Origin: Amoebophrya sp. A120
Lineage: Eukaryota > Protista > Dinoflagellata
Direction: 5' to 3'
DNA length: 64,000 bases
Assembly (NCBI GenBank): GCA_905178155.1
Contig: CAJINV010000005.1
Location: forward strand, 6,874,580-6,938,579
Shown: in pieces, positions 37,380 to 61,699 of the stretch
Layout of the letters: every line of letters starts with the position of its first letter
Position numbering within the stretch: the first letter of the stretch is position 1
Notes under the pieces: model-generated
What the model was told of the DNA's origin: nothing
What the model saw: the letters and a program-made list of their open reading frames with translations, nothing else
Databases searched by the model: none
Translations under genes and position numbers: made by a program

Positions 37380-40300
37380 ATGTCAATGACTTGCTTTTAC
37401 CACCACCACGACGCCGACCTATATGGTCTAGACGGCAAGAACACCCCCCTGTTCCCGGGAGACCTAGATCAGTTGGACAACAATCTTTACGGCGCTGAGC
37501 CTGGTGCATCGTCTCCCGCTGCAGTGCCTCTTGTGACAATGCACAACTCTCCCTCATCCTCACTTGTATAGCAGGAGCAGCAACAAAAGCAATGCCACAA
37601 AGGTAGCTTTTGCATGACAAATCCACAAATGGATTGCAGTCCTGTTTAACTTTAGGCGTCCAAAACTTGTCATCCGCAGAGTGCTTAAGGTCAAGAGGCG
37701 GATTGTGCGGTAGTTTGCATGACAAATAAGGGGGAAGGGGAGTTCTGCATTGTCATACCTCTGACTTATCCGGTTCCCCCCTCGGACGTGTTTTCCACGA
37801 AGACGAAAACGCCGCTGATGAATGGAAGCGGAAGTGGAAACACAACTTCAACTGCCTCTGGTGCAAATGACGACGCAATAGCAGCTCCATTCTCGACGTC
37901 CGCAAAGAAGGCGAAAAAACTGCTCGGGAGCTCGAAATTATACAACCTCATGTTCGGAGGTCGTGGAGACGAGGCTGCTTCGTCTTCTTCAACGGCAGCG
38001 AACAAGAATAAAAATCTCGGAGAGATGGACTACAAAAGCAACCCGGCTCCTTTCCGGGAATACTTCCTGAACATCCTTGGGAGCTCCGGACTGAATGAGA
38101 AAATCAGCTCGGATATCAGCCGTAAAGATCAATCGGGGTGAGGAATAATGAGTACCATCTACTACGCACGACAGCAACGCGTGGCTTCCAAGAATTGTCA
38201 TGTTGTGCTCGTCCACTTGCAAGTGTGCCAGGCATCCATTCTTCCATCCCCATCACAAGTTTCCAGAGGACCCAGATCGATATTTGCGATGCATATCCGA
38301 CGGCAACTCCGAGTCCAACACGGGGACCGCTGGTTTGTTAAACGCTTACGAGGTACTATGTAAGAAAAAAACTGTGTAGTTGTAAATCTGTGATGCAGAA
38401 CATGCAACAGAGTTACACCTGTCATGCCAGAGTGCCACGCAGTCCACTTTTCATGTTTGTTTTCCGTTAGAAGCCACGCATGACAGGTTTTCTGTTATGT
38501 AGAGCAGATCTGTGATGCTGTCAGCCCAAGAATGTTACACTAACACAGTTTTTTTCTTGGATAGGTACTCATGCAGAAAGACTCTACAGCATCCAGTAGT
38601 GCCGGCGGCGCAACAAGCGGGCAAACATCAGCTGCTTCCGCCTCGTCTTCCGTAGCTGCAAATAACCTCGACACGATAGCTGATTACAATCAATTGCCGC
38701 AGAAAAAAGACCTTTTCTGGCTGGATTTGAAACCCAAGAACAGCATTCCGACCGGGGGAGGAGGTGGGGGAGTTACCGTGGCGCAGGAGAGCAACAAATC
38801 GGTGGATCATGTCGAAATATCCTGTGAGAATGTTGCTAATCGTACTCGTATCAACTTGAATTCATTTTGCATCAAGTAGGAACGTGCGTGGCACTGGCAG
38901 ATTTATTGCGGTCTTGGTCTTGTATTCAATTATTTTACCCTAATCCGCATCTAAGAATGCATTTTTTTCATGATATTCGTATAATTTGTTCGAGTGGGTG
39001 AATGTGGAGTTTCACTAGTAAAACTAAAAAAATTTGAGGCGGGTGCTTTTGGAAAAATGCATAGCGGACTTCTAAAAAAGCAGAAAACGTCGAACAGCCT
39101 GAAGATCGCGGGTTTCTCTTATCCTGAGTAGAAACATCTCCACCCTATAATCAAGATGGGAAAACTGCTAGACAAACCTACGAACTTAGGTTGTTGCGCA
39201 TGACAAGTTTGGCCTCATATTGTAATGCTGTTTAGCTCGTTCGGAAGCATCACAAATCTAGCCTACCATGCTGATTGGAGCATCACAAACTCAAGAACAC
39301 GATTAGAAATTGCTTCTCATGGGGCTCCGCATTAGAAACATTCTGAGCATGCGTTTTTGCATTACAACTAGGGGGTGGGGCCGTTTTTACATAGGATATC
39401 TCTTGCGTGCCATTCTCCCCGCCTCGAACAAAGTGAAACAATTATCCTGAGTAAAAACGTCCCCACTCCATAGTTGTCATGCAGATTTGCATCTACAGAA
39501 ACCTTTGTAATGCGGGTCCCAATGAGAGGCATTTCTATTCGTGTTTTGGGATTTGTAATGCCGAAAATAGGATGAGCAGACGGATTTGCGATGCGGCTGT
39601 CCTTCAGAACCTGCACTACACTACGGACTGCAGCTTGTCATGCGTGGCTCCCAAAGCTTCTAGATTTGTGTTGCTAAGTTCCCAAAGTGACTATGGGGTG
39701 GGGACGTTTTTACATATGATAGCAACGCCTCGAGGAACTGGAGCTGGAGCGATTTTTAGATCTGAATTTGCAGAAGCAGAAGGGGTATGCATTGCAAAAG
39801 TAACGTACTACGTACAAATTGCATTACAAATTTGCTCAGCTTGAAGAATGGAGTTTGTCATCCTGATTTCCCTTGGGAAGCAGATTTGTCATGCATATCA
39901 TATCTGCAAGCCGTACGAGTGCGATACTTTTGCAGTTGATAAGCGGCTCGGGTCCTACGCCTACAAAGACGTCTTCAACGTGCGCGGGTGGAATTTCAGC
40001 AAGGTCGGTCTATCAACCGCAAATATGTCTGGGTCTGGAAGATAATTGTCATGCATATTTTGCATGACCCAGGATGTCTGTAATGCACGACCTAGCATCT
40101 TCACAGATTTTTAGAGAGCTTCCTGATGCCCAATCCGCACGAGAAATAATGCCCCCGCCTCCGCGTAGCAACAATGAACTGGACTCCTGTTGCTGGTCAA
40201 CATGCACTACAAATTTCCTATAGAATCCAGTGCTATCGTCCGGATTTTGAGTCCACACGAATATGCATGAAGTCATCTCCTCTGAGTCCTCAGAGCGAGA

Positions 40301-43300
40301 CTCTTTTTTTTTGGATTGTGTTTGGGCCTAGAACTAAAGAGCAGCCTTTTAAAGCCATGCGCCATGCTAAGGATGTGGTTGCACGTATGGCAGCTGCGTG
40401 TAACCGAACTGGCTAGAATGGTAGTTGTAGTTTCCTAATTTTATCAAAGCATCGGATGAAGGAGGTAGTACAGTGAAGACTAAACAGTGGAAAAGGTAGA
40501 GCGACATTGCCGAAAAACTTCAACCAGCGCCGAAAGTCTTAACGAGCTGACTCTTGGCGCTGATTTGCTGTTTCTGAACCCCGTTGCAGTGGGGGGAGGA
40601 AAACAGCAGGCAGTGTCATCCCGGGCGTCCGTTCCCCCGCAGGCGTGAATGTGAGGGACGATGTAAGTAGGAGAAATACATATCTAAACAAGGACCTGGG
40701 GGTTGTATCTCCAACTGCCAGGCGGCAACCCAGCGAGTGCAGATTCAGCGGACGCAAGCCAAACGAACACAAGAGGAGGAACGAAGTCCGAGACGGCAAG
40801 AACAGCAGCAGCCACAGCCTTCCTTCTATGCCGTTTTATGACTTCTGCATGCCTTTTGTCTGTAATTTGTATAAAAAAAAAAAAATTTCCTATAGAATCC
40901 AGACACAGCATCACAAGTATGGACGGACAAAACCTTATTAATTCCGGATTTTATAGCTATAAAAATAGCTAGATTTAACTATGCATTTTTTAAGGTCGGT
41001 TTCCGTTTGGCAGCTCCATCCCTTCGTCTTCGTTTCGTTTCTGTTTCTTTTCCTTCCGTCTCCTCATTGGTTCGGTCAGTTGCGGTCTCGATAGCAAGAG
41101 AAGAAGCTGCTATTTGATCGTCGCGTTTTCGATGTGTTCGCCGCAGAAAGATCTTGAGGCGCATGATCCTGGCGACGTGGTTTTGTTGATCTAGATCGCG
41201 CTACATGTGTTAAAGCAAGCGATCATTTGTGTGGTCTCGCACATGATGTCGCTTCACGTACTACATTGCGGTGGCGAAAGTTGATTTTCGTGGATGGCAA
41301 AAAACAAGATCTTCATTGCCAGCAGCCGAGAAAAACATATCGAGAGTTTGAAGCTATTCTGAGCTTCTACATTGACAGAATGTTTTTGAAAGTGCACAGC
41401 TCGACCCCCTTTCACATGCATTACAAAAATTACAGCAAGTAGTGAGTAGCTCTGAGCCGTGCTTCGTGGGCCTTTATGTTTTTTATTTTGCCGGTGTTCG
41501 CTTACGGATCGCTGAAAAGCAGACCACTATGAAAAAATCTTAAAGCCACAACCACAGCGCGAGTCTCGAGCTCGTGTGTGATCCACATCTCGACGTAGTT
41601 CTTATGATTTTTGTGAAGCGGCTGCTTTTCGTGTGTTGATTGGAGGGGAACGAGCAGCATTGTGACCAATTTCGTTCGTATCGTTTTGATCGTGGGGCGT
41701 CGTCGTAAATGTGTGCGTCAAAGTCGCAAGCTCATCTACTGGGTCGTCGTTCCGCAATGCCAGACTTTCAAATAAAGACTAAGTTGAAGCTCAGCTGTCG
41801 TGGTCCTCGGAGTCGATTTCGACGTGTGTGTGAAAGCATCCGTGTAGCCGTGCGCGTACAAGTAGCGACAAATCTCAGCATCGTGTCGTTGGGGGGAAGC
41901 TATCGTTGCGCAGCTGTTGGGCATCGTGAGACGTGGGCCCTGTGTTAGTGGTTTAGATTTTGACTCTGACGTGGTTTTCTCATATGTAGCCAGAAGTTTA
42001 TCAGAGATGTCAAGGGGCATCAGACTGCAATATTTGTATTAGTATTTCAGAAGCATTCTCACGCTGAATAGAAGGAAACTAAGAAGCGAAGCTCTCATCT
42101 TTGACAAGCAGTAAAATTAGTACACATCTTGATCTTTTTGATGAGCCGAAGAAAAACAAAAAGTAAAAACACCTTCCTAGTTTTCCTCCGTCTACTACTG
42201 CTTTTCTTTTCTTTCTCGGATAGAACTGCCAGAGCATCAAATGCAACAATCAATGGTCGTGATGTCCTTCCGAGGTTGTGATGAGCTGGCACCCGCTTAG
42301 GTGGGGGGTTGCGTGGTCTCTTTCGTCATTGCTGCAACTGTCGGCGGAATAGCAGCTCTTGTTCAAATTTTCCACACGTGTTGGTCCAGGATGCCACGAC
42401 GTGCAGCCGAGAAGGGCGACGGGGCAGACGCCGGGTTTTTTGGTGAACAAGTTGGCGCTTCGGGCAAACAATACTCCAACTTGCAGAGGCTTCTTGAAGC
42501 TTATTTCGACCCGAATGACAAGAACAGCAACACTACTTCCGGCGCGTTTCTGAAACGCAATAGGAAGAGCAAGATCGTTTCCCTCGTGCCAACGTCGGAT
42601 ACTTTGCGGAAGCGGTTCTCCGCGTTCAAGGCCGACCGCGTGGTCGAAGGCGAGGCAGCTTGGGAACAGTTTGTGCGAGACCAGTGTGACCGGTTCAATG
42701 CGCCGTTCGACCGCGGCGACGCTGCTACGCGGAAGATCGTCGCAAAACCCAATCCGAACGCAGCACCAGCTGCGGAAAGTGAGACAGGAGGTAGTAGTGC
42801 GTCTGGTTCGCTGGATGCTGCGCAGGACTTGGCGCTGAACCCAGAAAAGTACTTCAACAACCCCGAGAAGAAGGACAACAACTTCGAGCACCTAAAGTCG
42901 ACCCGGAAGAAGGAGTACAAGTGGTTCGCACTGGGGAAAAGTTTAGGCGGAACCGCAAAGGCGCGGAACAAGACCTTCAAAATCGCCAGCAGTGCCGGCC
43001 TCTTCTCCCGGTTCAAAAAGATTACCCAAGGGCAGGCGGAGCTACGCGTTGATCACGCGCAGCGGAGCAGTTCCAAGTCCTGCTTCAATCTCCCGCGCCG
43101 GAAGAAAAGAGTCGTCATCCACCGCCACGTTGAGGTTTCCGAGTCTGAGGCAGAGGACGAGGAGGACGATATTCTTGCCGACGAAACGATCGTGAAGAAA
43201 CAGGGCAACGGGCGGGTGCGGGTCATGCGGGAAATTGCCGAAGAGGTTGAGATAACCGACGCGGAACTTTCCGAAGATGACGCTCCTTTGGTGCTGCCCG

Positions 43301-46300
43301 ACGGTGGCGACTACAACCTGGACGACGACCAGTTCCATCATCATCGCAACCAGCTGTTCGGTGATGATGTGAAGGTAGCAGCCGGCGGCATATCGAGGAA
43401 AGCAGCAAAAATTATCGCCCAGAAAGATGAGAAGGACAGGAACAAAGAAGCGGACCAGGAGCGAAAGGAGGCAGTTCGGTCGGAGCTGAAGTATTTCGAC
43501 GCCGGACGGATTGCTGCCCGCAACCGGTTGGTTTCGTTCTTATTGTCAAGCGGCATCTCCACCGCCGGTGATGCGAAGTGTAATGGTGCTGCCCCTGGTA
43601 CGTCGAAGAACAAGAACAATAACAGCACCGCTTCCAAAATCAACAGCAGCCAGAGCGTGAACGTGGGCGGCTTCTCATCTTCTGGCGCCTTGGCACAGTT
43701 AGGGGCGGCTGTGCGCCATCTGCTGCCAGCAAGTTTTCTCGGGTCCGGTGACTTGGTATCGGGAGAGCAAAGCATTCGTGCTACTGACCACGAGTTTCTG
43801 CGAAATCAAGCGGCGCCATCCATCTCGCCTGCGGATAGTGATATGAATATGTTCGACGACTTCGACTTCGAAGCGGAGTATCTTCCCCCGGATCCACCGA
43901 CCGCGGGGTCGAGCAGCAGCTCCAGTAGTAGTTCGGGAAGCGCAGCCGTCGGCAGTTCAGCAGCACGTGGCGTGCGCGCGTCCAAGTTTACCTTGTTGAA
44001 GCAGTTGCCGAGTAAATCCGTCTTGAAGCAGGCGGAGAAAAAACAGTCTCAACCGGTGGCGGGCAAAAGCAGCAAGGCGGTAAAGAAGAAGGTGGAAACC
44101 CTGCTCCCATCCTTGAGTGGTACCTGATTTTCATTTTTAGTTTTACTTTTACATTTACTATTATACCATGTTACTTTACTTATACTTTAACTTTTACTTT
44201 GCCACGCAGTGGCAGTACCACTACGACTACCAGTAGCAGCTCTTGTTCTTCAACTTCATCTGGATCTTGGTGCCGAGCTTCATCTTCTTCGCGTTCATTG
44301 TCAGTTTCAAACTCGAGGCACTACTCGTAGTCCTATTGTGAAGCCGAGTTGCAAGTGTAGAACTAGTTTCGATCGAGATTCATACTCTATTTCTAGTAGT
44401 TCTGACTGCAGTAGTAGTTGTGTTTGTAATGCTAAACATAAATCGACCTGTGCTTGTAGTCGAAAGCGGAACTATTGAAAAAGAAAACGAAAAAAAAAGC
44501 TGAAGCAGTCATGTAATACGAATACCACCAGATGAGGAGGAGGAGCCTGCTGCCCAGGTGGACACGCAGCCGGCGAGTTCGGCTTGCGGAGACAGTGGGG
44601 ATGGCTTCGACGCCTTTTTGAACTTTGGCTTCGGCAACGATGAACAGAATAGCCAGCCGTTCGGGTCGCTCGGTCAAAACAACTTTCCTTCCACCGCCCC
44701 GGACCTGGGATCATTTGGTGATGAAAATTCGCATCGTCTGCTGCAGTCCGGCTACCTCTATGGAACGGGGGTGAAGGGGGATCTGGGTCAGGCAGAAAAC
44801 CGGCCGAAGGTGGGGATACGAATCTCCCCGGACGCGACCCCGTACGATGAAATCAAGGCCCTCAATTGCTGGGCCACACTCTACAAAAGCGACTGGTACG
44901 ACCCCATGATCGTTTACTCCCACGATACCGTTTTGCCCACCATATCCACCGGCTCCGGCCATGAAGTTTTTTTACAGGATTTGTACGAATCCGCGTGGAG
45001 CATCGGATTCCCGCTACCCGGCATGTGGTCGAAGGTGTGTCGCGTCGGTAACAAGCTGCTGAAAATGCGGCCGTCGCTCATCTGCTCATCCGACTCCGCG
45101 TCCGACGTGAAAAAAGCAGTCAAGTGCTGGGTCGAGTATGCCACCGCGCAACGCTTCTACGACCCGGACCAACGGTTGGAGGAGCCGCTCTGGAATGTGA
45201 GCTGGCTCCAGTGCCAGTTGCATCTGGCCCACATTGTCGCGAGCACATTGGTCACCTTGTGTGGATTATGCTTTGCAAAAGTATAAGTAAAGTATCGCAG
45301 TCGCACTAGTAGTAGTAGCACTAGTAGAAATCGCATGAGAAAATCAAAATTGAAACTCGCCAGCAATGATGGCGAGATTAGATTTCTCATGCTGCGTACC
45401 AACTAAAAGTTAGTTTGTCATGCTGATCAGCATCAGCATCAACATCAGCAGCGGAACTTGTGATGCATTATTTTTCTTGCGACTGCTTTTGACTTTGAGT
45501 TTGAGTTTCGTTTTGCATTTGCTTTTGCTGCGAGAGCGATACTTACTTTAGCTTTTGCTCAGCATAGCGATCGTTGCTGCGGCTGGATTTTCGCCGAACG
45601 TTATCTGCGGTCTCCAAGACGGTCAATTTGTGGATCGCCCCGCGACGGGTAGCGAACGACAGGAAAGGGACAGTCCGGGGGCAAAAAACTACTGATGAAT
45701 TGCTGGTCGAGCTGTACACCGTCGACGACGAAGAATCGAAGAGACGCTTGCACCACATGACCTCGGTGGAGCAGGAGAAATTCCACAAGGAGCGCATCGC
45801 GAGCGACCCCAAATTGCTCGCGAAGAAGAGGCTGCTGGAGACCAAGCTTCGCTCTTCGGAGTCGGTCGTGAAGCGTGTCACCGGTTTCGTTCGGACGCGC
45901 TGGCTTTCGGTGGGAAAGTGTATCACGGGGCTGTGGAGGCAGCAGGAGATCATCGTCCAAAAAGTTCTGGATAAAAGTGATGACAAGCTGCAGAAGAAGA
46001 GCCGGAAGTTTCTTAACCGGGCCAAAGCTGCCTTCGGGAAGCCTCTGTGGTGGGGCGGGCTCCGCGTGTTGAGTCTCGTCCTGATTGAGATAGACCGCGT
46101 TGCGGGCGTCGTGATGCACAGTTGCTCCAAAGAATTGGACGGTGCCAGCATACCGGATTTTGTTGACAGTTTGCCGCGGTGTCACAAGGTCGACTTGTTT
46201 CAGCGGGTTACGGATTTCCTCGTCACCATCGGCGGCATGACGGTCCGCGGTCTCGCCACAGAGGGGCTGGCGCCGGTCGCCGCGATAATGTTCTGGACCA

Positions 46301-49300
46301 TGATACAGGAGATGGACCTACGACATTCTCCCCTTCGTGCATGGCCTTACCGATTGGCGTTTCTCTTCTCGAAGGACAAAGCGGAGCGTGCGGCAACTAT
46401 TCGAGACTTGCTGGCGGCGTGCGCCACCGAGGCGAAGCGGTCGCAGATGCCACTCGAGGCACTGGAGGTTTGGAAGTTGTTCCGGTTGGAGTTGAAGCAT
46501 GTTCTCGAAGCTCTCGAGCAAGGTCGTGTCGATGTCGGGTGGAGCAAACAGTTCTGCAGAAATCTGTGTCCCGTCGTCAGGGGCTTCCTCGCTAGCAGTC
46601 AGATCGCCGAAAGTTTGAACAGCACTACTTCCTGGGTAAAGCGGGAGGCCGGCGGTCTCATCGGCATTTTGCTGGGATCCGCCCGCACCTTCTGCAGACG
46701 GGGGGCGGGAAAAGATTTGGACTTCGAGCAGTTCCTCTTCATCAACGACCACTGCCTGTCGATCAGTGCAAATATGAGAATTCGGAAGCTGCTGGAGGAG
46801 AAGGGGATCTACGGCGACCCGCTGATTTCGGACCGAAGCGACTTCTTGCTGCGAAACGAGGTCCGGCCGGAAGAGAATCCGCATCGTGTGGTTGCGGAGC
46901 TGTTTGATGTACTTGCCCGGCCTGACTGTCCCGAGGCGGCGCCTCTCGTCGGGGGTGATAAGGCGAGGGGTGGGGCCGCGCGCACAAACTACGGTGGTCA
47001 GGCCCTGAACATGAAGGTCTTCGACTTTCGGGTTAGTGACATTCTGGGAATGCCTTTGTGGAACCGCGATGGAACGCCCGTGAAGAAGATGCAGTACTAC
47101 TTCGTGCTGAAGAAAACCAAGCAGGGCGCTCTTCTGGCCGAGGTGGTGGAAGACACGGACGGGAATGCGCCGCCGGGGCATCAGCTCCGGATGTCGGTCG
47201 ATTTTGGTGTCACGGTATCCGTTTCGGAAAAAACCAAAATACGTCGTGGAGTGGAAGTGCAGGTGCTGGATTTGTCATGCAAATCTTCTCTGTCATGCAG
47301 GGCCGGATCACAAGCCTGCTCCTGCTACTAGTTTTGCATTTGAGCATCAGCATTAACATGTACATGAGCATCACCATGCTGGCTCTCATTCTGCATGAGA
47401 AGGACTAATCTCAATTTGTGACTTCAACATGAGAAGAGCTTCAACGTGAACTAATCTGCATGAGAATGACTAGTCTCATTCTGCATGAGATTGGCTTCAG
47501 CACGAGCATCAGCTTCTTCATGTACATGGGCATCACAGTGCTGGCTCTCATTCTGCATGAGAAAGACTAATCTCAGTGAATTTGTGATGCAGCATGGGCA
47601 TCCAGAGCCAAGCTGCTCGGCACAATAAAGGCAGTCTGTGATGCGGGTCGCGACAATGTAGATCTGTAATGCTAGTATTGGTGGTAGTTTGCATCTGTCA
47701 TGCGCGGAACAATAGGACTAGCACTAGTACAACTAGGCTGCGCTTTTCAACTCAAACAACAACAATTATGGACTAGAAAGCACGGCAGGTTCTTGTCATA
47801 CAAGATCAATAGCCACGCAGCACAGACGGCCCTTTATTATCTCCTCGACGTACTTTTGGTTTTCCGTGCATAGTGCTGCTGGTTTTCCGATGCAATGTCC
47901 GCGCGCTACGAGGACCAGCCGGCAAAGTATGCGAAGAAGGCGGGGGAAAAAAAAGAGCCGCAGCTTCGACCCGTCGTCCAGAACGGTTCCACGCACCTGA
48001 AGTTCTACCACATGGACACGTCGAAGAGGCAGAGGCTCTGGCACATGGCACCGTCAACCGAATATGAATCCGAGTTCTACTATCAGCACCGGGTGAACGA
48101 TCTCGGCGTCCCCGACACTGAAAATCTGCGGCTTGGCTATAAGCCGGCCAAAACCTTCCCGGATCATGATCGCATCGTCGGCAAGTGCACTGTCATGCCG
48201 TGGGCCGACATCTGTTTGTCGAAGAACGCGGAAGAGGAGAACAGGGAGTTGAGGAAGGAGAAGCGGCTGCTGCGGAACGCGCGCATCGACTCACCGACCC
48301 GGCGATCCCGCGACGAGAAGTGGGGGAAGGTGCCGCAATCTATTAGGATGCCTGAAGTCGCGGCCAATGGGCTCGGCGACCGGGTTTACGGCATCTGGCA
48401 GATAGAACAAAAACAGTGGTGGGGGTATCTTGAAAAAGCAGTTCCCTTCGACCGCAGAAACGAGGTCCGGCCTAACGGCGCACAACCAGCAGGAGCAGTA
48501 CCTGCCGCAGTCGGGATCCAACCACCACAACCATCAGGCTCGGGCGCGCATGCAGGCGCGCGTGCGCATGCAGGCGCAGGCGGGCACGTGCGCGTGCACA
48601 CACATGCACACGCGGGTGACGGGCGCGGGCGTGCACCCGCGGGTACAGGCGCGGGCGGGCAGGCGCAGGCGAGCGCGCCTGCGGGCGCACACGCAGGTAC
48701 GGGCGCACACGCAGGTACGGGCGCACACGCAGGTACGGGCGCACACGCAGGTACGGGCGCGCACGCAGGTGCGGCCGCGCGCGCAGACACGGGCGCGCAC
48801 GCAGATACGGGCGCGCGCGAGCGTGTGGGCAAGCAACGCGCGGGTGCGGACACGCGCAATGCCGCGCAGCCGGGCGACGAGCAGCAGCCTTCTGGTTCCG
48901 GAAATGCAGGCGCACAACAGCAAAATGGAGATGAAGGGGAAGATCAGCAACAGAAAAACAAAAAACCGTGTGCCGCCCGAAAGAAGTACTTCGTCGCCAA
49001 AACGCGGCAAGAATTCGTCAGGAAGATGGTAGAGTTTGAAAACGGGAAGATCTGTGAGGTGGAGCGTGCCACACCGGAACAGGAAGTAGCTGCGAGCGCC
49101 TCGCTGGCGCAATACCAGAAGGAGAACAAAGTTCTGGAGAAGAAACAGAAGGGCGAGGACATCGAGCTTGACAGCGACATGGAAAGCACATACGAAGAGA
49201 CCGATGATTCTTCCAACTTCGGATCTTCAAGTGATGACTCGGACTAATGGTGCGGGGGATGTAGCGCATAAAGCTAAAGATCAGGACTTAAAGACACAGA

Positions 49301-52300
49301 TAAAGTAGCACTACAACTACTAGCATTGAAAGTGAGTATGAATATAATAAGATTAAGAATAGTAATAGTTTTTGTTTTTGTTTTAGTTATAGTTTTCCAC
49401 TTCCTGTTCCTTATCCTTTAGCTTTACCTTTTAGCTTTAGTTATAGAAATTGAAATTGTATTTCTATTTGTAATTGTAATGGTAACTGAATACAGGTGCA
49501 GGCACAGCTACAGGCAAGGGCGCCACTTCCACTACAGAAAGAGGCGCACTTCTTTGCCGCGATGCTCTGCGCTATTTGTGTTTCATAATCGTATCAGAAT
49601 CAGAGTAAGTGCACGATGCAGATTAGCATGAAAGTAAATGTAAAACTCAGCCGCTATGTCTATTGGTATTGCTCCAGCTATTCGTTTTGGTCTTTGGTTC
49701 TGGTTTATAAATATCAATAAGAAAAAGAATAAGAAAATGAAAAAGAATAACAGTTGCGCTTCCAGTTCTACTTCTATATCTATCTCTCTTACTCTTTCTT
49801 TTTGACTTTGTATTTGTAATCGTAATGGGAATGGTAATTCTAAGTCTAATTGTAACTCCAATTCGCAATAGAAATTGAAAATGTAAAAAAAATAAATATG
49901 AGTGCGCCAGCAGGAGCGCCTACGTCATGATCATGAAGAAAAATAAAAAGCGTGATAATAGGTTTATGATTTTATCTTCGTGCTCATGGCTTATTTCACT
50001 TTTGTGTTTTGACTTTTTGTTACTGGAAGACGAAGAAAGAAACCGACTCTGGTCATTGATCTTGCTCTGTTTCGTTTCGTTTATTATCTGTATCAACTAC
50101 ATGATCGAGGAAATTAGTAACTAGAATTACGCATATTTTTGCGTGGTGAAAATGTTCCTTTCACATGTGCGCGCACCTCTTTTCATATCATAAACATCCA
50201 TGTGATCATGCAGATCATGCAGATTTGCATCTTGAATCTCAGCGCTTTCGACCGAAGTGCGATCATATTCAAGAGCATGGCGACAGAATTATCGATGTCC
50301 TCGCGCAGTGGATTAAGCAAAACCGACACCGAAATTAGTGCACAGCCCACCACTTAGCAGACAATTTGAAAAACTACACGCAGCTAATGAAGACGCTGTG
50401 AAGCGTGACGCTGAAGAGCAAAACTCTTGCATGGACAACAGAAAAGCAGCCGCTTTTTCTTGCATTGTTAATACATGTATTCCTGTACAATAGATTTTGC
50501 GCATAACAAATTGAAACATAAATCAAAAGATGCTGTGCATTCCGATTGTTAGAAGATTGGCGCTTCTAATCCGGAATGAGGTAAGGAAAGTAGAAAATCA
50601 AGTGAGTAGTGCCTGCGCTCCACTGTAAAACCAGCGCGAAGCCGAGTAATGCGTCTTGTTGTGTTCGTCGATTTTTACTCGTCAGAAGCAGTCGGAAGAA
50701 AAATAATTGTCTTCGTTGGGGTCGATGATCACGTGGCTCTCAGCACCAAAATGCCAGATACAGAGCTATCTCTTGTCAGATTCAAGGTGATGAAATGGTC
50801 GTCAGCGGTGATGGCCAAAGTGGCCATTTTTAATTTAATTGAAATTCTACTGCCGTGGAGCACTATGACAGCAAAGGACGTCTTCTACCATATTTGACCA
50901 GATCTCCTATTCTAGTGGAAAAAAGCAGTAGAAATTCAATTAAATTGAAAGTGACCATTTTCAACATCATCATCTGACGGCTCAAAGTCTTCTGATAATG
51001 TGTTGCATCTTCATCATTTTGACCGCGTTTTCACCTCAAAACCAATAGGAATTGTGAGAGAATATTTGAAAAATATATTGAAAAAAGGTGAGTCTTTCGA
51101 CGTTACGTCACACTAATCGTCCTTCGGACGATGAAGTGGGGACGTTTTGCAGTCTCGTAGACTGTGGCGAGGCAGGCGTGCCAGAGGCAGATCATATTCT
51201 GCTCCGCTTCTGCAAAAACGGTTACGACCCGAACAACATGAGCCGCACCGTGGTGAAGTTGAAACAGCACCACGTGACCAACAGTGGCCGCCACGAGTGC
51301 AGCCGTCCCATCGTGGGGGACAACTTAGCGTCTTTGCGCCACGCCGTGCGCGAGCGCGGCCGCGCCGACGGCCTGGACGGGTCTAAGATGAGTACTATTA
51401 TTTTTGTGTTTTTCATGCCTATAGTCTTCATGTATAATCCATTAGACCGTGCGCAGTTCCATAGTGTTTTGCTTGTTTCGGGTTCATCACGCATTCATAT
51501 GTAGTGAGAAACTTTGTGCATAACTACACAGAAAATGTCGCATGTTGTCGTGCATTTCTCCTTGCGAGGAGGGCAAAGCGTCTTCGTGCACAATGTTACA
51601 AGTCAGAAAAAATCTCCTCGTGCAAGCATTTTACAGCTTTCTGATTTCATGCGCGTCCACATCGTTAGTCGTACACAGAGCACGTTCGAGGTACTGCATA
51701 GCAAAAAAATGCACGTTCGATGAGCTGCGTGTCATATACAAAAAGCACGCCCACGCGCACGTTCGAACTACTGCGTGTCGTAGTCATTGTCATATGCAAA
51801 AAATAAAAATTTCTTCCATTTTCATTTTTATTTTCACTTTCAGTTTCAATCTCAATTGCTAAATAAAAATTATAAACTTCCAGGACTCGTGGCAGTCGAC
51901 TATACGGGAACTGGTCGCTTCGACTTCCAGTTCGCGTTCGTGCACGGCGGGCATACCTGCTTAGCGTTCCTGCTGGAGGGATGCGATCCGGAGCCCTTTA
52001 TTGTGGATCTGGTGCTACTAAGTCCAGACGTGGACCGCCATCCCGAGCTTTTGACCAAGTTCGTCATGCTCAAGAATAACACCCCCGAAGGGATGTGCAA
52101 CGGGTGGATCGAAACCACCGTGCTCGCCGGAAAGGTTCGCAGTTGTTGTTGTTAGATTTTATTTTCAGCCAGATGATCCTCATCTTCATCTTACATCTTA
52201 GATGATAGTTGTAGTGTTTCTTTTTGCATTGTGACCGTTTTGCATCACAAATTGAAGTTTTACTTTTACACAAACTACAAAATGAAAATCTAAAACAAAT

Positions 52301-55300
52301 ACAGTCCTGGCCCAAGTTCAACCAGTACCGCGACACGCAGGCCCGCGCGGGCAGAACCCCGGACGAGTTCGATGTGTGGATCGAACGACTTGCGGGCCCC
52401 AAATGGCGCGGGCAGCTGAAGAGTTATGGGAAGCATGCCGTGACCATGTTTAATAGAGGCGTGGTCCAAGAATACACCCATTTTGGGTTGAGCGTCAGCC
52501 AGATGGTCCCCCGCCCGAAGCACAACGATGGACACTTAAAATTCTTCGCTTACAGCAACGTACTGATTTTTTTTCCACTTCCGTTCGAGCATCATTCTGA
52601 GAGTTTTAATGTGCAAGTACATGCGCATGTTCATGACAGGCTTCAGGTTTCTCTTTCTCTTGTAGCTACACCTACATGTAGATCACATTCACTTTTGCAT
52701 ACAAAAACAAGCGCAAGCTTTGAACTTAAGCTTCAAAGTAAAGTTGCAAACTTTAATTTAAATTTTAAAAATCAAAACAGAACACCCTGTCCTCGATCAA
52801 CCCGTACACCGACACCATCATCGAGAGTGGAAATGTCCAGCTTGACATGCACTACGCCGTGAGAGTCATCCTGCAGTTCGCGGCCGGCTGCCAGGCCGAC
52901 GTCGTCCCGTGGTCTGAATATCCTTTGCAAAAGCATCACGTCCTTTCTCATAGTGAGCGGATTTTCGCATTACAAATTGCATTGCAAGTAGTTTGTGTAT
53001 CTTGCCCTGAAACTGCGTGACAGATTGCTATTCTCATGCTGCACAAGATCGTGGTTCAGCTACTGGCACTGCTAGTGCTACTGTAGCAGAGTATAGTCGT
53101 GATGCTTTTCCTTTTGTGAAGATTCATAGGACCGTCGAGGAGGACATTTTGACCATGTTGATCAAGACCAACCTGGCCCCGGCCAAAATTCCGGACCGCA
53201 GCAACGAGGCCAAGAAGTGCAGGACCAGCGAGGAGATGCAGTTGATCTTGCCCATCAAGGAGCGGAACATCAAGTCCAACGTCGTGTCCCTCTTCAAGGC
53301 GATGAAAAAGGTGAAGGACTTCTATTCCAGCAAGAAAGAGACAGGTTTGTCCGAAGAGTCGGACTTGAAAGAAGCCAGTGATCTGGAAAAGAAAGCGAAC
53401 CCCCAGTACTGGGGTTTGAACTTCCAGGGGAACTGGGTTTTGTCCAAGGAGTTCAAGCGCACCCAACAGCAGAAGGCCGACGAAGACTTCCTGCTCACCA
53501 ACGTGGCCCAGCTGATCAAGACCAAGTACAAGTTCTGTGCGGGGAACCTGGGCTCGTCCGTCCAGTGCCATGTGGTTCCGTTCGACAAGAACATCCCGAA
53601 AGCCACGCTCCTGGAGCGGCTCATGTACGTGATCGGAAGCCAGAAGGAGTCTTTGTTCATCCACAAGTTGAAGGACGCCTGCCCGAGCGACCACATCGAG
53701 CGGCTGACGGAGTGCGTGACGGACGGGACGCTGCTGCTCCCCCTCGTCCCCACCACTGCCGACCCCGCTGGAAAGGTGGACTGCTTCGAGATCGACGAAA
53801 ATGTGGACGTCTCCTTGAACTGGAAAGGAAAAGCCGCCGCAGCCGCGAAGGGCGGAAGAGCGCCCGCAGCCGGAAAAGCGAAGAAAGACAAAGCCCAGCC
53901 CGCGAACGCGAAAGCCGCGGCCGCTTCGGGAAAAGGAAAGGCTGCCTCCCCCCCGCCCGAGGCAAAAGCTGCAGCTGCGGTAGCTGCGTTGAAGAAGGTA
54001 TAGTAAATCTAAATAGCAATACAATTACAAATACTATTTCGATTATTAAATCTAAAACTAAATCATAAAGTTAAAGACAAAGACTCAAATGAAAAAGCAA
54101 AGTGTAAACTTTAGTTGAAAATCAGACTCAGTTCAACCTGAGAGAGCGAGAAGGTAGAGTCGACAAGTCGTGTAAGAGAAGTTATTTGCAACTTTGCGAA
54201 AAAATCTGTCAGATGAAGTGCGATGCTTTTGTCGAGTGGGTGTCTTGTGCTCCTGGTTTTGTATTTGAGTTTGTGTCTCTCGGTTTTTATGCGCGCATTC
54301 GCTGCGCGAATAACATCAACAAGTGCAACTGCCCGCGTGTGTGCGCGCACACCCGCGTACGTGCGGGTACGTGTGCGTGCACACGGGCGTGCGCGCGTGC
54401 GCGTACACGCATATGTGCACGCGCGCGTACGTGCACGCACGCATACGTGCACGCGCGCATACGTGCACGCGCGCATGTGTGCGCGCACGCATACGTGCGC
54501 GCATGCGTACGTGCACGCGCGCGTACGTCCGCGCACGCGTACGCACACACGCGTGCGTGGGTGCGCGCGTACGCACATGCACACGCGCGCGCACCTACGT
54601 ACGCATGCACGCACCCGCGCGCACGGATGTGTGCGCGCACATTCGCCTGTCCGCGTCTGCGAACAGGTGCGTGCGCGTACAAATGAAGTTCTTGCGTTTT
54701 TGTTGCTGCAGGCACAGACTTTTAATACCAAACCAGGAACAAAAGATTGCCACTGAAGTCACCACACTCATCTAACAGAAACTGTCAGCGATTTTGATTT
54801 TCAGTGGCGCTTCCTCAGCTGCATCACCAACATCCCAAACATAAAATACAAACAAAATCTCACAGAAGGATCCCAATGCTCCGCCGTCCCCGGTGATCGA
54901 GAACCAGCTGGGTCTGCCGGACGAGACCGCGGAGGAGAAGTTGAACCGCGATGCCAATCGCCAGCGGTTGGAAAAGGACCCCAAGAAGTGCTCTTTGGAA
55001 TACCTCTCCGGAAAACAGCCGAAAGCGATGCGCTGGTGCATGTGTGTCCCGTCCGAGTTTTCGCACTTGACCGACCCGGAATTAGATAAGCATCATGAGT
55101 TATTACACAAGTTGCGGATATTAGTGAAACCGGACAACACGATGTACGACATCGGTAAAATCGGCGACGGCGTCGACTTCTCCATCGACAAGCTCTTCTT
55201 CAACCCCAGCGAGAAGCGGTTCCAAGGAAACTGGCAGTTCCCGAAGGGTGGTCCGCAGGCCCATAGTTTGGGACTCAGGTATTTACTGTTATTTATTTTT

Positions 55301-58300
55301 TGATGTTCATCTTCATGCTACGTCAACGTCTACTAGCACTAGCACTCGCACTGCAAATCCAAGTTCAAATTTGAGCACGTGTCCAAGTACTAGTAGAAGT
55401 GCCGTTACTATTTGCATTTCGATTTCGCTTTTTGTTTTCGGATTCTTGCATGATAGGTAGATGCAGTTCCAATGTTCGCTCGATCTTCATCTTTTGCAAA
55501 CGAAATTGAAACTGAAAACCAAATCGCACTACAGTCACATCAAATATTTTTGGAAGTGCAGTGATGCTTCCAAATGTGACCGCTCCAAAATTATTTTTTG
55601 GCGGACCATTACGGAGGAGATGCCATCTTCCGCGGAGAAGAACGCCCCGATGGTGAAGATATCCTTTCAAGTCCCGCTGGAAACAGGAGTCAAGGCGCTC
55701 GGCAATAGTAAGAAACAGAAAACGCGATGCTAGAAGTGGAGAGAAGAAAGAAAGTGTAAAGAGAAGTAAAGAAGAAGAAAGAAGTAAAGTGAAGAAAAAA
55801 AAGACCCCCAGAGAAGAAAAGGGGAAAGGAAGAAAGGCATTTTTGTTTTTGGTGCTCCTCCAGGTAGTAGGCATGCAATTTTGGAACTGTTTTTTTGGCA
55901 CAGGTGCAAACACCAACTCCATCACCACAGATACAGAAGTTGATCATGAGAAAAAAAGTGAAACGCTGAAGCATCCTATTTTCGTTTTCCACATGACCAA
56001 GATATCTTCATTATCACTATTTCGTGCTTATGCATGTCTCCAAAAAAAAAATCAGGTTTTGCATCCACCGCGCAGCTTCGAATGAGACCTCCTCTGTCGT
56101 GAAGCACAAGATACCTCCGCATGAGAACTCCTCTGTCGTGAAGCATCTGTTGTAGAACGGGAAAGAGACTTGATGTAGTAATTTTGTCAATGTTACGCTA
56201 GCACTACTAGTAGCGTTGTTCTTATTTGTGTTTCGCTTTCGCTATCTAGCTTCCAAGATCAAGAAGATGAAAAAAACAAAATAACAATCAAAGCTTCTCT
56301 TATGTAAGATTAGCCTGTGGGCAGAGCTAGAAGTCGATTTGCAAGCTACCAAATTTTCACAGTTTTCCTTTGATAGTTTCACCCGTCGTGCATTTTTTGC
56401 TTCTCTAGAAACGGATTCTACTTTTTCAACTTCGCTTTTCACTTATTGGAATCAAAATTCGTATGCAGCATCACTATTATTTATTTTTATACCGTATTCT
56501 TTGCCTCAGTTTGATTTTCGCTTCCTCTATCGTGTAGTACTGAAGTATGTTCGCCTCGGTTTGATTTTCGCTTCGTAGCCGCACGTAGAATGAAGTATGT
56601 TCGCCGAGACGGGAATCGTATGAAAAGTCCCCGCTTCTACATCTAGATCTACTATGAGCTATCTTTTTGTTTTTCGACTGAGCTTTTTTTTGTCGTCGGC
56701 CTCCTTGTCCACACTGATTCTAGACATGACGCATCACAGCCAAAGCGTGTGGATTGGAGACTTGACAACAGGCGCCTTTAGTAAGAAGAAGTCGAAGTTC
56801 TACACCTGCAGTTGCTTCGTTGCGATTTTCATTTTCTCGCTTCGCTTTGCACAGACATCTACTTCCAGTTGTAGAAGGACCACACTACGTAGAAATAGAA
56901 AAGGAAAACCGTAGCGCAAATCTTAGTTATGAATAAAGATGACTCGACTGAGCTTGCACTTGTTCGAAGCTACTTTGCTCCGGTTCTTTTAGTTCAGCGA
57001 GCATCTACAACTTCAAAATTTCCTAGAAAGAAAGGAGTATTGAAACTCAAATACAAATTGTAGCTCTAGCACTGATTTGATTTTCATTTTCAACGTCCGT
57101 GACCATGTGAGTTGGAGTGTCAATATCTGCTATCTGAGCTTCTGCCGTCCTGTAGTCGCCTGGTTGCGTTTCCCGTAGTTTGCCGCATAGCGTGGCACAA
57201 CAAAGAAGTAGTACTAGCGAGCATCTACGTGCGTAGTCTCTGACTTCAGGAAGGTATGTTTGTTTATGTCAACCGGTCGCCTTGGTCGGGCAGTGTTGTA
57301 GATGTTTCGCATCTGCAGCATTGCTCAACCTAGACCCCTTATGAATGTTTCGCACTCATCATGAAAAAGAACAAGAGCTGGTATTTGGACGCTAGGTTCT
57401 ACAAATAACGTAGAGACTCAGCCTTGTTCGAAAACTGTCTCACCTCGCGTTGCGCCACTTCAGTTTCTATTTCGAAAAGAATACAAAAGTAGCAGGAGGC
57501 TTCGTCATAAAACTGGAAGAGCGTTATCGCCATGTTTGTCGCGCGCGTCTGCAAGAAGCCGTACCTGCAGTGCCGCGATTTGATTTTCATTTTCATATCT
57601 GTATAGTTCGCAGCGCTCGCAACTATGGCTGCTCATTACATTAGACTACCCCCCATCGAAGCTGTGAATTTCGTTTTCTTTTTGTGGTCAAATCAAAATT
57701 AATTTGAGATATGTTCGTAGGCTACCCAATCCGACTTCAGCACCAGCATTGACGCTTTGAGTTTGGCGCTTCCATTTGACTTTTAATTTTATTTGCAATA
57801 TACAAAACGTACTAGTAGAAGCGTTTGATTGATCCATCGTATCACCGCCGGCTGGCATCAAGGTCACATCTCTCGCTGTGGTCCTTTTTGCACTTTCGGC
57901 ATAAACCTCCTTTTTATTTGAGTGCTCCGTGTCTTTGTCACTTGCGGAGGCAACGCTTTCGATACAACTTTTGCTGCTGAGAAGGAAAGGAAGTGCATAT
58001 CGACAAAACACGAGCACAAGCTACTTGCGCTTTTAAGTGTAGTTTCATTCGCAAGATGGTTTTCAATCTGATAACCGCTTCGCCTGAATACAAGCACCGG
58101 TCATCTAGTAGCTTTGTGGTGAGTGCTATCGTGCGTGCACGTCCTCGACCGGATTGCGATCCGCGTCGGAGCGTCAGTGCCGGTATCATATTCTCACCAC
58201 CGTGAACTACTTTTAGCACTACCCCGGACGTCGACGTTTTCATTCGTCACTGCCCCCCGGCAATTTCGGAAATCACTCTGATAACCTAGTCACGCTGCGA

Positions 58301-61073
58301 GTGATGCACACTGAATGAGAACTGAGTCTGAAACTGCTTTGCTTCTACCCGAAACAACTTTCGCTCTACCCATGAAATTAAAACATGCGTGTTTGTTCCA
58401 ACATTCAAAATGAAAATAGGACGCCCACACAGCTGCAGGGCCGTCGATAGGTGCGAAGCATTACAGCAGTGTCCGTAGTGCTGCCAGTAACGGTGTTCAG
58501 GTTCTTCTCCCTTCGAGAGGTCCATTAGTTGAAATCATCATACAGAATCAGTATCAGAATAAAGATCAACAGGAAGATGACTATCATAACCAAGAGCAAC
58601 GCGTTTCATCTTCCTTGAGTTTGAGTTTCCAGATGTAGTAGCCGGCGAGAGTCGTAATATGTATCTGAGTCACCATCTCGTTCTCGATGAGTGTCGAGCT
58701 TTTCGCTTTCCTTCGTCGTCTTCTGGTTTACATGGAGCATGTGAGATGTGACGTCGGTGGATGCACCAAAAATAAAGAAGCGTGTAGCTCAGGGGCAGCA
58801 AAGAGAGAAGCACTTTCTCCGTCTGTCTCGATCCAGTGTAGATCTAGGCCCACATCCGCTTTGATTTCGTGTCCGACCTCTTCTGCCAAAAAAAAACGTC
58901 CGTGAGGAGAGGACATGGTGACGCAGTCGTCCCGCAACTTCAAGAGGACATGTTGATGCAGCCGTCCCGCAACGCTTCGGAGCTCGTCGTCGTGAGGGGA
59001 AAAACTTTCAACGATAAGTACTACTTCGGGCAGCCGCTCTGCAGCATGGTCCTCCCGTAAAACCGTGATGCATTGCCGCCCATCGCAACGTCATCCGTTC
59101 TTATGTTTTGTTATTGCTGTTTTACTTTTAGTTTTAGTTTTACTTTAGCTTGAAGCTTTCATTATTGCAGGGCTGCTTGGTCTTATGCAACATAGTAAGT
59201 CTCAACTGTGCGCATGATCTTACTGATTTTAATTTCAATTTAGTATTGGTTCTGCATGACAGCCTTGTTATCTTGGTCGACTTCCCATTCTCCAAGCTGA
59301 GAAGTAAGATGTGTCTGCAAATCGCCCTGAGCTCGTATCAACAGCAATGGCAAAAGAGAACGATCGCGGTAGCGATGGGTGGCGTTTTTGTTTTTGATAC
59401 CCGTTCGCCCCACGGTCCCGCGTACTACACGAAAGTCGCGATCCCCTACAAGTCGCGGGCAAAACGCTTCAAGTCGGAGGACTACGAAAAGTGGGAGTTG
59501 CGGGAGGATGACACCCACTGGGAGATCTATCGCATCCTGCCTGCGATTGGCGAAAAGTGGGCCAGCGTCGAGCGCGTGGTGCGGGTTCTTCAGCTTCTAC
59601 TTTAACTTTAGTCTTTTGGTAAATAAATTGCGCGCGTACCTAGTGTTCCGGTTATGTTGAGGCACTTCTACATCTGGGAGCGTCCTCGACTCTTTCGTGT
59701 ACATCTCAGACCTACAATCAAAACCACCGCAATCATTGACACAGATTCCCAAGGCGGAGTGGCCGGGGACCCCGGATGGCTGGCTGCAGCCGCTGGTCGC
59801 CGTGGCCCCGACGAAGGCCCCGACGAAGCGGAAGGCGGACACACCCGTAGCCGGGCCCGCGCGACGACGACCCCGTCGCGACGTGCCTATCTGATGACCC
59901 GCAGCTGGTTGCTTCCGCAGTCTGTCGCGATTCTGCGTCAGCTATGTCGCGCATCGCCTAAAGAAGAACAAAGACAGATGGGCGTGACGGATATGAGAGG
60001 CGAAACAGGAGATGCTAATAGATCTAGATGTGCTTTTGGTTTTGCTTTTGCACAAGTACAAGCAGACGTAGAATAGGACGGCAGAAATTGAAATCATGAA
60101 AAAGGCAGTATGAAGAACAACAAACGTAGAACCAAGACCAACGAAATGGCTTCAGATAGAACATTGTTCAGAGTTTGTATCTTCTAGGCCCTAACCCAAA
60201 TCCAAACCTACGCTCCGGGGCCGCGCAAAAGTTCCTCCTACTTATGCCCGTTTTCCAACAATTCAACAAGCCACTGAGATGATAAAAATGATCAGCGTTG
60301 CAGCGTGTAGAGACAGGTTCGAAATGAGCTCGCAGCTGTTGAGGTCGTAGCTCAAAACGCACTGAGGCAAAGACAACGGAAGACAGGCCTTTTCATTATC
60401 AAGAAGAGCTCACCGCCCTACGGATCTGCTACAGAAAGCAAGAAGAAGAATGTTCCTAACCAAGTCGCTTCCATGGCAGTAAAAGCGTGTAGAAGGGCCA
60501 AAGTGATTCGCTGTCCCAGATCACCCGGCTGACCATCATCGATCAAAATCAACAACTGATCAGCTTTATGGTAGTCACTAAAGATAATTGAAATTCTGCG
60601 AGTATGCGTCTTTTCGTTGCGGGGGAGTGGGCATCCCAATGTACATCAACACCCACTTATTCGCTTGCGTTCAATTGTTAAAATCGGTAACCGGAATACC
60701 TAGCTAGAATAAACCAAACAGATTTGCAGGCGTTAAGAGCCGAGAGTCGGTTAGATACGAAGTTCGCAATTTGGATATCAATAGTAAAATCTAGCTATTT
60801 TTATAGCTATCGAAGTCCGGAATTAAGAGGTTTTGTCCGACCATAATCACAAGTTCTTGCAACCTTCCAGCCCAAGACATATTTGCACTTACATACAGTC
60901 CGGGCTACTCCAAAACGGTAGATGGGAGCGTGACGGGCAGCAGCGGAAAACAGCTGGTAGAGCGGATCAGGAACGAAAACGAGGTGGACTTTTTGAACGT
61001 GAAAAAAAAGGACTGGGAAGAGGAAAACGGAAAGCAACTACTTTTCCCAGAAATGCACTCGAAGCACCTTTGA
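37380..61073 (+). CDS. Hypothetical host gene whose last intron (40011-60895) holds the giant transposon
   Basis: Exons separated by introners at 37532-37757, 38114-38295, 38357-38563, 39120-39398, 39443-39721 and 39786-39941. The last junction reads ...VRGWNFSKVG|PGYSKTVDGSVTGSSGKQLVERIRNENEVDFLNVKKKDWEEENGKQLLFPEMHSKHL* in frame. Confidence 0.72.
40231..40882 (+). mobile_element. Poly(A)-tailed retroposon (SINE, truncated LINE or retrocopy)
   Basis: 20-bp TSD AAATTTCCTATAGAATCCAG at 40211-40230 and 40883-40902, with an A-run immediately before the second copy. Confidence 0.85.
42391..47331 (+). CDS. Large spliced hAT-superfamily-like DDE transposase
   Basis: Exon ~42391-44119, GT-AG intron, exon 44532-45266, introner 45267-45566, then exon from ~45572; both joins are in frame. 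Motifs in hAT order: ISPDAT (D), SSDSASDVKKA (D), CQLHLAHIV (CxxH), RTRWLS (RW), SSQIAESLNS (E). Confidence 0.75.
45267..45566. mobile_element. Degenerate introner inside the transposase gene
   Basis: tatgctttgcaaaag...agtatcgc / gcgatact...cttttgctcagcata, direct repeat TGGAT/GCGAT; removal gives TLCGS|LLRLDF in frame. Confidence 0.75.
47874..49247 (+). CDS. Element-encoded ORF with GTGAHA repeats and acidic tail; may be the last exon of the transposase
   Basis: 450-aa ORF; a phase-0 AG acceptor at 47873 is compatible with phase-0 GT donors near 47215 or 47263; 18-bp tandem unit gggcgcacacgcaggtac at ~48683-48770. Confidence 0.6.
   Translation, partial: CCWFSDAMSARYEDQPAKYAKKAGEKKEPQLRPVVQNGSTHLKFYHMDTSKRQRLWHMAPSTEYESEFYYQHRVNDLGVPDTENLRLGYKPAKTFPDHDRIVGKCTVMPWADICLSKNAEEENRELRKEKRLLRNARIDSPTRRSRDEKWGKVPQSIRMPEVAANGLGDRVYGIWQIEQKQWWGYLEKAVPFDRRNEVRPNGAQPAGAVPAAVGIQPPQPSGSGAHAGARAHAGAGGHVRVHTHAHAGDGRGRAPAGTGAGGQAQASAPAGAHAGTGAHAGTGAHAGTGAHAGTGAHAGAAARADTGAHADTGARERVGKQRAGADTRNAAQPGDEQQPSGSGNAGAQQQNGDEGEDQQQKNKKPCAARKKYFVAKTRQEFVRKMVEFENGKICEVERATPEQEVAASASLAQYQKENKVLEKKQKGEDIELDSDMESTYEETDDSSNFGSSSDDSD
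51088..55733 (+). CDS. Multi-exon cargo gene of unknown function
   Basis: GC-rich exons ~51088-51391, 51884-52134, 52305-52559, 52781-52911, 53130-53997, 54865-55278 and ~55534-55733, joined by phase-compatible GT-AG introns; the first exon boundaries are the least certain. Confidence 0.65.
54333..54680. repeat. Long alternating purine-pyrimidine tract
   Basis: About 350 bp of mixed GC/GT/AC/AT alternation (gcgtgtgtgcgcgcacac...) inside a cargo-gene intron. Confidence 0.9.
58869..59894 (+). CDS. Small multi-exon cargo gene of unknown function
   Basis: GC-rich coding-like islands at ~58900-59056, ~59345-59584 and ~59745-59894 with GT/AG borders; basic C-terminus KRK...RRRPRR. Confidence 0.45.
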
Positions 61074-61699
61074 TAGAAGAACGGACGAATTTTCGTTCGT
61101 GTGGAACAAACCATCATAGTTGTAGTTCTGGTTGTATCATACTTTTTACAACACGACGAATGGTGTATCTTCGATGTTCATGTTCTTCGACTTACTGCTG
61201 TGTGTTGGTTCTCTTCCTCCTCTTGTCGTGCACTCTTTCGTCACTTGTACGAACGACACAGACTTATTATACCCGCCCCGGTGCTTCTGGCAGCTGGCTC
61301 TACAGAGCGAGTACCAAAGACGTGACCGCGAAGAGTATCGTCCAAGCAGGGTCGACGTTTCTTGAGGTCATCTCGTAAACAAGGGGAGCGGTGAGAGGAG
61401 GATGCGCACCAGCACCAGCAGGAGGTAGCGGTCGAGACTTGCAGTAGTTGTATTTAACGTTCGTGAGTAATCTCAAAGTAGAAGCCTCAGCCTCAGGTCG
61501 TTGGGACATGGAGGTGCCATTGTAGCAAATAGTCGACGAACAAAGGAGCGACGAGGACTTTTTTTCGTTTACCAACTTGAGCAGGGAGGTCACCTGAGTC
61601 TGTCTCTGTTCTTGGAAGCTGGCGTTTTTAGTATAATAGCAAGCAGTAGTTTACAACTTACCACAGCCTACTTTTTTCTTTAGTTCTGAAGTACTCAAC

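Follow-up and report, generated by a model that had tools for sequence, protein, structure and literature searches.

A 277-bp introner of Amoebophrya sp. A120, stretched to 20.9 kb by nested insertions, is absent from some host RNA

Results

The host gene and the introners of the window

The window, that is the whole stretch of 64,000 nucleotides from Amoebophrya sp. A120 that was analyzed, carries a host gene whose last exon is separated from the preceding exons by an introner of 20.9 kb (40011-60895). Within this introner lie a poly(A)-ended retro-insert and a transposon with terminal inverted repeats (TIRs), the latter containing a putative transposase-like gene and a second gene, termed gene B. 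The features are as follows:

37380-40007, plus strand: host gene from the coding start through the last upstream exon, eight exons with seven short introners between them (joints from X1 RNA)
40006-40010, plus strand: left direct repeat CGGTC, the copy retained in spliced RNA
40011-40230, plus strand: 5' part of the giant introner, including the left copy of a 20-bp duplication (40211-40230)
40231-40902, plus strand: poly(A)-ended retro-insert (652 bp) and right copy of the 20-bp duplication (40883-40902)
40903-40917, plus strand: central piece of the introner with the left copy of the 8-bp target duplication (40910-40917)
40918-60845, plus strand: TIR transposon of 19,928 bp with TAT...ATA termini (TIRs 40918-40982 and 60781-60845)
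42391-49247, plus strand: transposase-like gene, likely a single one, with predicted exons at about 42391-44117, 44532-45266, 45572 to about 47250, and about 47900-49247
45267-45566, plus strand: short TAT...ATA introner nested in the transposase-like gene
51130-54003, plus strand: gene B, multi-exon, with three GT..AG introns that preserve one frame
60846-60895, plus strand: right copy of the 8-bp target duplication (60846-60853), together with the 3' portion of the introner
60898-61141, plus strand: last host exon, 57 codons, stop at 61071-61073

Three of the sequencing runs used (X1, X2 and X3, all from one sample) were judged to be RNA, since they contain spliced joints at seven other introners as well as non-templated A tails. 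X5 is a DNA run, and RNA and DNA come from different samples. A further run, X7, is indel-rich and without spliced host joints, and covers 37.4-41.1 kb at ~6-13x.

The spliced frame of the host gene, built by script, is identical residue for residue to the public A120 protein P0001 (CAD7951806.1, 397 aa), and the public gene model already spans the 20.9-kb introner. The public model is transcript-based, so it may not be independent of the RNA data. Searches of Pfam and PDB with the host protein gave no family and no match, respectively, and a search with one host exon recovered P0001 alone and no ortholog. The gene downstream of the host gene (61700-64000) is transcribed and spliced, with a joint from 62057 to 62216 in all three RNA runs; two of its ORFs were scanned against Pfam and gave no match. 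Inspection by eye revealed what we take to be metallophosphoesterase/5'-nucleotidase-like motifs in this gene.

The window is dense with short inverted-repeat TAT...ATA elements (35 by a simple rule), 27 of which show at least four of five matches in the flanking 5-bp repeat. They agree with the A120 introners described by Farhat et al. 2021 (PMC7789003), for which the available part of that paper gives complementary inverted repeats of 8-20 nt, a direct repeat of 3-5 nt and the terminal motif TAT + 7 nt + AAA. The flanking repeats are often imperfect: at least one mismatch, mostly at position 3, is found in 15 of the 35 introners (e.g. at 38114, 38818, 39443 and 39786), which exceeds the expectation for a fresh target duplication. 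In the introner at 38818-39063 the repeat is degenerate (CGAAA/GCGGA) and the ends pair more weakly than in any other introner tested (-21.8 kcal/mol), yet it is spliced out in X1 and X2. Elsewhere in the window, two arms of a 15-bp tandem repeat (24138-24339 and 24827-24938) are opposed as a long inverted repeat within a larger insert (~23.5-25.1 kb), possibly another stretched introner. Rfam yielded no match within 39900-61300, and a sigma-70 scan, which is not applicable to a eukaryote, stayed at chance level.

Two insertions account for the size of the giant introner

The ends of the giant introner are complementary, starting with TAT at 40011 on the left and ending with ATA at 60895 on the right, and they are flanked by CGGTC and CAGTC (60896-60900). 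An earlier note on this DNA had described the survival of both ends and of the 5-bp repeat, which we confirm at these positions. The terminal motif TAT + 7 nt + AAA is exact on the left, with 8 nt in between at the right end. The same note had proposed that a 277-bp introner had grown to 20.9 kb; indeed, the two inserts explain the entire excess. Their removal by script leaves an introner of 277 bp, and the lengths add up exactly (277 + 672 + (19,928 + 8) = 20,885 bp). The flanking exons join in frame to the stop codon, TGA at 61071-61073, and the C-terminus predicted for the host protein is present in P0001, both as claimed. The nominal chance of an exact match at a fixed place is 1.5e-5 for the 8-mer and 9e-13 for the 20-mer.

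Eleven short introners of the window were compared with the reconstructed 277 bp, which share 65-71% identity with seven of them and 59-62% with the other four. Contigs of X7 that derive from an uninterrupted copy of the family join 40199 to 40893. If introners are taken to be short and devoid of an internal transposase, the 277-bp core is one, and the giant form with its 20,890 nt and two secondary inserts is not.

The smaller insert (40231-40882) has both hallmarks of a non-LTR retro-insert, an exact 20-bp target duplication (40211/40883) and a 3' poly(A) run. RNA contigs of 4568 and 4188 nt from X1 and X2 match it from 40348 onward with ~5% differences, while its part 40231-40347 is unmatched and the contigs beyond the insert are unlike the window. 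Because these 4.2-4.6-kb contigs match at ~95%, the insert likely stems from the 3' end of a longer retro-element that is transcribed elsewhere.

The TIR element and its copies

The TIRs of the larger insert are 65 bp long and 89% identical over 66 columns. The exact 8-bp duplication (40910-40917/60846-60853) is seen at one copy of the element; a 9-bp reading fits too, and the 8-bp reading is favored because of the TAT...ATA symmetry and the second flank described below. Both termini of the element (40918-40934 and 60829-60845) begin with TAT, followed 8 nt later by a run of A, which resembles the A120 motif TAT + 7 + AAA. We rated it as improbable that the TAT...ATA introners descend from the giant element as their autonomous parent, since the duplication lengths differ (8 vs 5 bp) and the terminal 11-mer is confined, within the window, to the two ends of the element itself. 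GC-rich purine-pyrimidine tandem arrays are located at 48520-48850 and 54315-54690, of which one encodes a GAHA peptide repeat in the ORF starting at 47874 and the second, a self-complementary array, occupies a gap between ORFs. Upstream of gene B, an imperfect palindrome of ~180 bp is present (50800-50979).

At a second locus, the right end of the element continues into a different flank in all three RNA runs. In addition, the DNA graph breaks at 60785/60814, within the TIR, and X5 contains 73 differences inside the element versus none in the contig of the host flank. On this basis, at least one further near-identical copy of the element likely exists. The X5 depth (33-55 inside versus 25) agrees with an extra copy but is not itself a copy number. 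Near-identical copies and the open transposase-like frame suggest recent mobility. The simplest reading of the RNAs at the element's ends is a possible outward-reading promoter in its right end; contigs show neither start sites nor levels.

The 73 differences in X5 (42301-60814) are lopsided, with T in the window at 49 and T in the run at 2 (p ~1e-12), in both contig orientations. Such a skew suggests that collapsed copies gave a biased consensus, or that the assembly is in error, and not that mutations occurred. X7 is nearly empty over 41410-49600, an interior that X5, a run of that same sample, does cover; the gap could reflect a deleted copy, base modification or filtering.

A divergent transposase-like gene and gene B

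Two ORFs of the element (44504-45266 and 45572-47250) are in one frame across the nested introner and its repeat (45267-45571). Following the residue patterns of hAT/MULE-type transposases, we marked by eye the residues D110, D197, C237/H240, W365 and E601 (numbered from 44504; codons at 44831, 45092, 45212/45221, 45901 and 46609). Residues of these types (D, D, CxxH, W, E) are required in hAT and MULE transposases according to the available parts of PMC4763223 and PMC5225508. A loose D-D-CxxH-W-E pattern occurred in 77 of 5000 shuffled sequences and the strict pattern, which was defined post hoc, in one of 5000. An exhaustive search yielded three relatives with 33-41% identity, two of them from Amoebophrya AT5.2. 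All three keep D110, D197, C237 and H240, and two of the three keep W365 and E601; of the 12 cysteines and 11 histidines, C237 and H240 alone, respectively, are kept in at least two relatives. At the level of these motifs, the element appears to encode a divergent D-D-CxxH-W-E transposase-like protein of hAT/MULE-like type.

The ORF 42301-44127 probably represents the first exon of this gene and 47874-49247 the last; the N-terminal exon is assigned to it because a profile matches weakly (E 0.001) and a GT..AG join keeps the frame. The earlier note had spoken of cargo genes on the strand of the host gene, which has to be revised: a single transposase-like gene most likely accounts, as its exons, for the ORF 42301-44127 and those that follow up to 49247. 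Word-index searches with the large exon as query gave no match, nor did Pfam, PHROGs, PDB sequence and profile searches or metagenome scans with the transposase-like protein. A BED finger and the hAT dimerization domain (PF05699) were not detected by Pfam scans of the window ORFs and the relatives. Atlas gave a lead to PF05699 clusters (0.82-0.84) and, for the other exon, to Transposase_21 (0.89), both under the 0.9 line. As to an RNase H-like fold, AlphaFold single-sequence models reached a pLDDT of 41, and fold searches with them gave no informative match.

Gene B gave no match in Pfam and PHROGs and has no relative in viral contigs. Compared with P0003, one of the relatives from AT5.2, it shows a weak tblastn match (E 8e-5) that is absent by masked blastp; because of this match, gene B may be an old part of the element and not fresh cargo.

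RNA and DNA evidence for removal of the giant introner

Junctions were read from loose contig ends, at the left half in X1, X2 and X7 and at the right half in X1, X2, X3 and X5. RNA joins 40007 to 60898 in one of the three RNA runs at the right end, as a single contig (X3). At least 255 loose letters precede 60898 in this contig, and the 30 shown equal 39978-40007, a 30-mer unique within the window. This is the junction that the earlier note had predicted, in its CGGTC variant: the removed piece comprises 20,890 nt (20,885 + 5), and the upstream CGGTC copy is retained in the RNA. A 3-nt stretch is common to both sides, so that the position of the cut slides over 3 nt; the four possible cuts are GT..CA, TC..AG, CT..GT and TA..TC, and none is GT..AG. 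Hence, 20,890 nt are absent from some host RNA, with non-GT-AG boundaries.

Unspliced RNA is present as well. An X1 contig of 1205 nt lacks the seven upstream introners and then runs through 39945-40075 into the giant introner; the sum of its exon pieces equals its length, with 0 differences in the six pieces listed. This form reaches a stop codon 11 codons into the introner and is without the last 57 residues, which bears out the caveat that the host transcript could be truncated. At the right boundary, contigs of X1 and X2 cross 60898 without a break. The last 150-180 bp of the element, the 3' end of the introner and the last exon are found in RNA contigs of all three runs, and non-templated A tails follow 61114 and 61141 in two of them. 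Across the region at the right end of the element (60663-61141), an in-frame start codon is lacking up to the final few codons of the exon.

Short RNA contigs at 59982-60551, one per run in three runs with a depth of ~3, are consistent with some read-through. X1 and X2 (on the right side X1-X3) are nearly contig-free over ~41.0-59.9 kb; a contig gap proves nothing, and therefore silence of the inner genes is not claimed. Since contig simplification can presumably drop the weaker branch, the ratio of spliced to unspliced RNA is not readable, and contigs give no efficiency, start sites or proof that both exons are on one molecule. In DNA, an X5 contig covers 60785-62092 without a break and with 0 differences, which argues against a common empty allele or a second copy of the last exon at this place; X5 may be the source of the assembly itself.

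Discussion

Removal of the giant introner

We consider it probable that the giant introner is removed in cis as one 20.9-kb intron by recognition of its ends, the interior being irrelevant. On this best reading the original non-GT-AG boundaries are still used after both insertions, and the end signals would therefore suffice. RNA polymerase would have to read through the entire element, and the introner ends would pair with each other in vivo. The calculated energy of this pairing is -35.9 kcal/mol, compared with -21.8 to -52.3 kcal/mol for 14 short introners. None of 828 interior windows offers the 5' end a better partner than the true 3' end, although the best competitor (-33.7 kcal/mol) trails by only ~2 kcal/mol. 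The 65-bp TIRs, whose duplex (-84.9 kcal/mol) exceeds every introner end tested, may help by looping out 19.9 kb. If splicing is slow or incomplete, truncated and last-exon-only RNAs would occur side by side. The introner would be a safe harbour, in which a likely cut-and-paste hAT/MULE-like transposon could insert into a gene without killing it.

The same contigs could in principle come from trans-splicing, in which a 5' transcript ending in or near the poly(A) insert is joined to a separate transcript from the right end of the transposon via the inverted repeats of the introner, an explanation that we regard as unlikely. Both half-RNAs do exist as contigs, the X1 exons running into the introner and the X1-X3 contigs containing TIR, introner end and last exon with A tails, and the element end enters the flank of the second locus in all three runs, as expected for an outward promoter. 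A contig depth of 84-107 at the right end versus 6-14 upstream is a hint only, as depth cannot rank parts. However, an unspliced cis pre-mRNA yields identical boundary contigs, low-depth contigs extend back to 59982, and the sole partner exon at 60898 is the correct one although the introner family is abundant; a precedent in Amoebophrya was not found in the accessible literature. Under this unlikely reading, the gene would be broken by the transposon into two transcription units, the 20 kb would never be present in a single transcript, and the host mRNA would be rebuilt from separate RNAs that each bear one half of a nuclear introner and meet through pairing of the inverted repeats. Quite improbable is a stepwise, twintron-like removal, in which the inner TAT...ATA element is excised from the RNA first and the remaining introner of ~950 nt is spliced thereafter. 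The element termini start with TAT like the A120 introners and the TIR duplex is strong (energy given above), but among the 10 loose ends listed for X1-X3 none joins into 60846-60854 (intermediates may be short-lived), and the 8-bp length of the element's duplication is found as a repeat in none of the 35 short introners of the window.

A minority of cells that have lost the transposon from their DNA, and keep an intron of ~1 kb, might also be the source of the junction. The signs of recent mobility, namely near-identical copies and an open transposase-like frame, and the different samples used for RNA and DNA would agree with such an excised allele, which we nevertheless judge very improbable: the X5 DNA contig runs across 60846-60898 without interruption and the filled right boundary is present in RNA of all three runs, with the proviso that contigs drop rare variants. 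An artefact of reverse transcription or assembly at short direct repeats would fit a joint that is found in one contig of one run with a 3-nt stretch in common. We give it hardly any credence, as the joint lies exactly at the family boundary, with 20,885 + 5 nt removed in the same way as at the seven upstream introners, and restores the frame of the public model.

Comparison with known systems

The giant introner resembles the A120 introner elements of PMC7789003 in its TAT-starting inverted repeats, the direct repeat of 3-5 nt, the non-canonical boundaries and its membership in a repeated family. It differs in length, since non-canonical introns average 240 nt in the available part of that paper and this one measures 20,890 nt, and in being nested, a word absent from the accessible text. 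The longest A120 intron tabulated there has 35,152 bp (Table 1). A 21-kb intron in A120 is in itself not new, since a 35-kb maximum has been tabulated and the public model spans the locus. According to the same text, U1 snRNA was undetected in Amoebophrya, and the route by which non-GT-AG introns are removed is an open question; putative transposases are given for A25 only and none for A120. In the parts of Gozashti et al. 2025 (PMC12130899) that were available, family fam9 has 278 bp, a 30-bp TIR and 2231 copies with coordinates reaching ~23.8 kb, and fam135 has four copies reaching ~18.8 kb with hAT5/hAT6 terminus flags. Five of the 58 A120 families exceed 10 kb there, and none is finally classed as hAT (Dataset S2). 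fam9 resembles the 277-bp introner in size and may correspond to it; the spans of large families may be gap-inflated. Because the coordinates of fam9 and fam135 run long, stretched copies are probably contained in these data; the text consulted does not discuss them.

As far as described in the accessible text of PMC11282704, nonconventional introns of euglenids are alike in their non-canonical junctions, end pairing, TSD-like repeats and unknown splicing route, but they belong to another lineage, range from dozens to several thousand nt and contain no nested 20-kb transposon. Group II twintrons, fungal stwintrons and trans-spliced split introns share the intron-in-intron geometry and possibly the pairing of split halves; in the sources available, group II introns and stwintrons are self-splicing or U2-type introns, unlike the A120 introner. 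The inner element shares with hAT/MULE transposons, as presented in the parts of PMC4763223 and PMC5225508 at hand, the TIRs, a duplication of 8(-9) bp and the ordered residues D, D, CxxH, W and E. MULE transposons have a duplication of 8-10 bp and long TIRs, and the duplication length and residues of the element would fit MULE as well as hAT, with no profile match. The element differs from both in that its gene carries introners and that the relatives found come only from AT5.2 and one contig. ToxhAT, a 14-kb cargo element (PMC12506042), is comparable in its large size and extra gene.

In the literature searched, no paper was found that describes this nesting, the coexisting RNA forms or a transposase in A120. 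New here are the nested build, the spliced and unspliced RNA forms, and a divergent transposase-like family in A120. This family weakens the published argument against a transposase-driven spread of introners, although the 8-bp duplication of the element does not match the 5-bp repeat of the introners. If trans-splicing were true, Amoebophrya introners would amount to split introns that are portable and withstand any insertion, even one that breaks transcription. On the preferred reading of removal in cis, a copy that is stretched 75-fold is cut at the exact boundary of its family, and the signal is therefore likely to be carried by the two ends and the way they pair and to depend neither on length nor on a compact hairpin. 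Introners can also shelter giant mobile elements inside genes.
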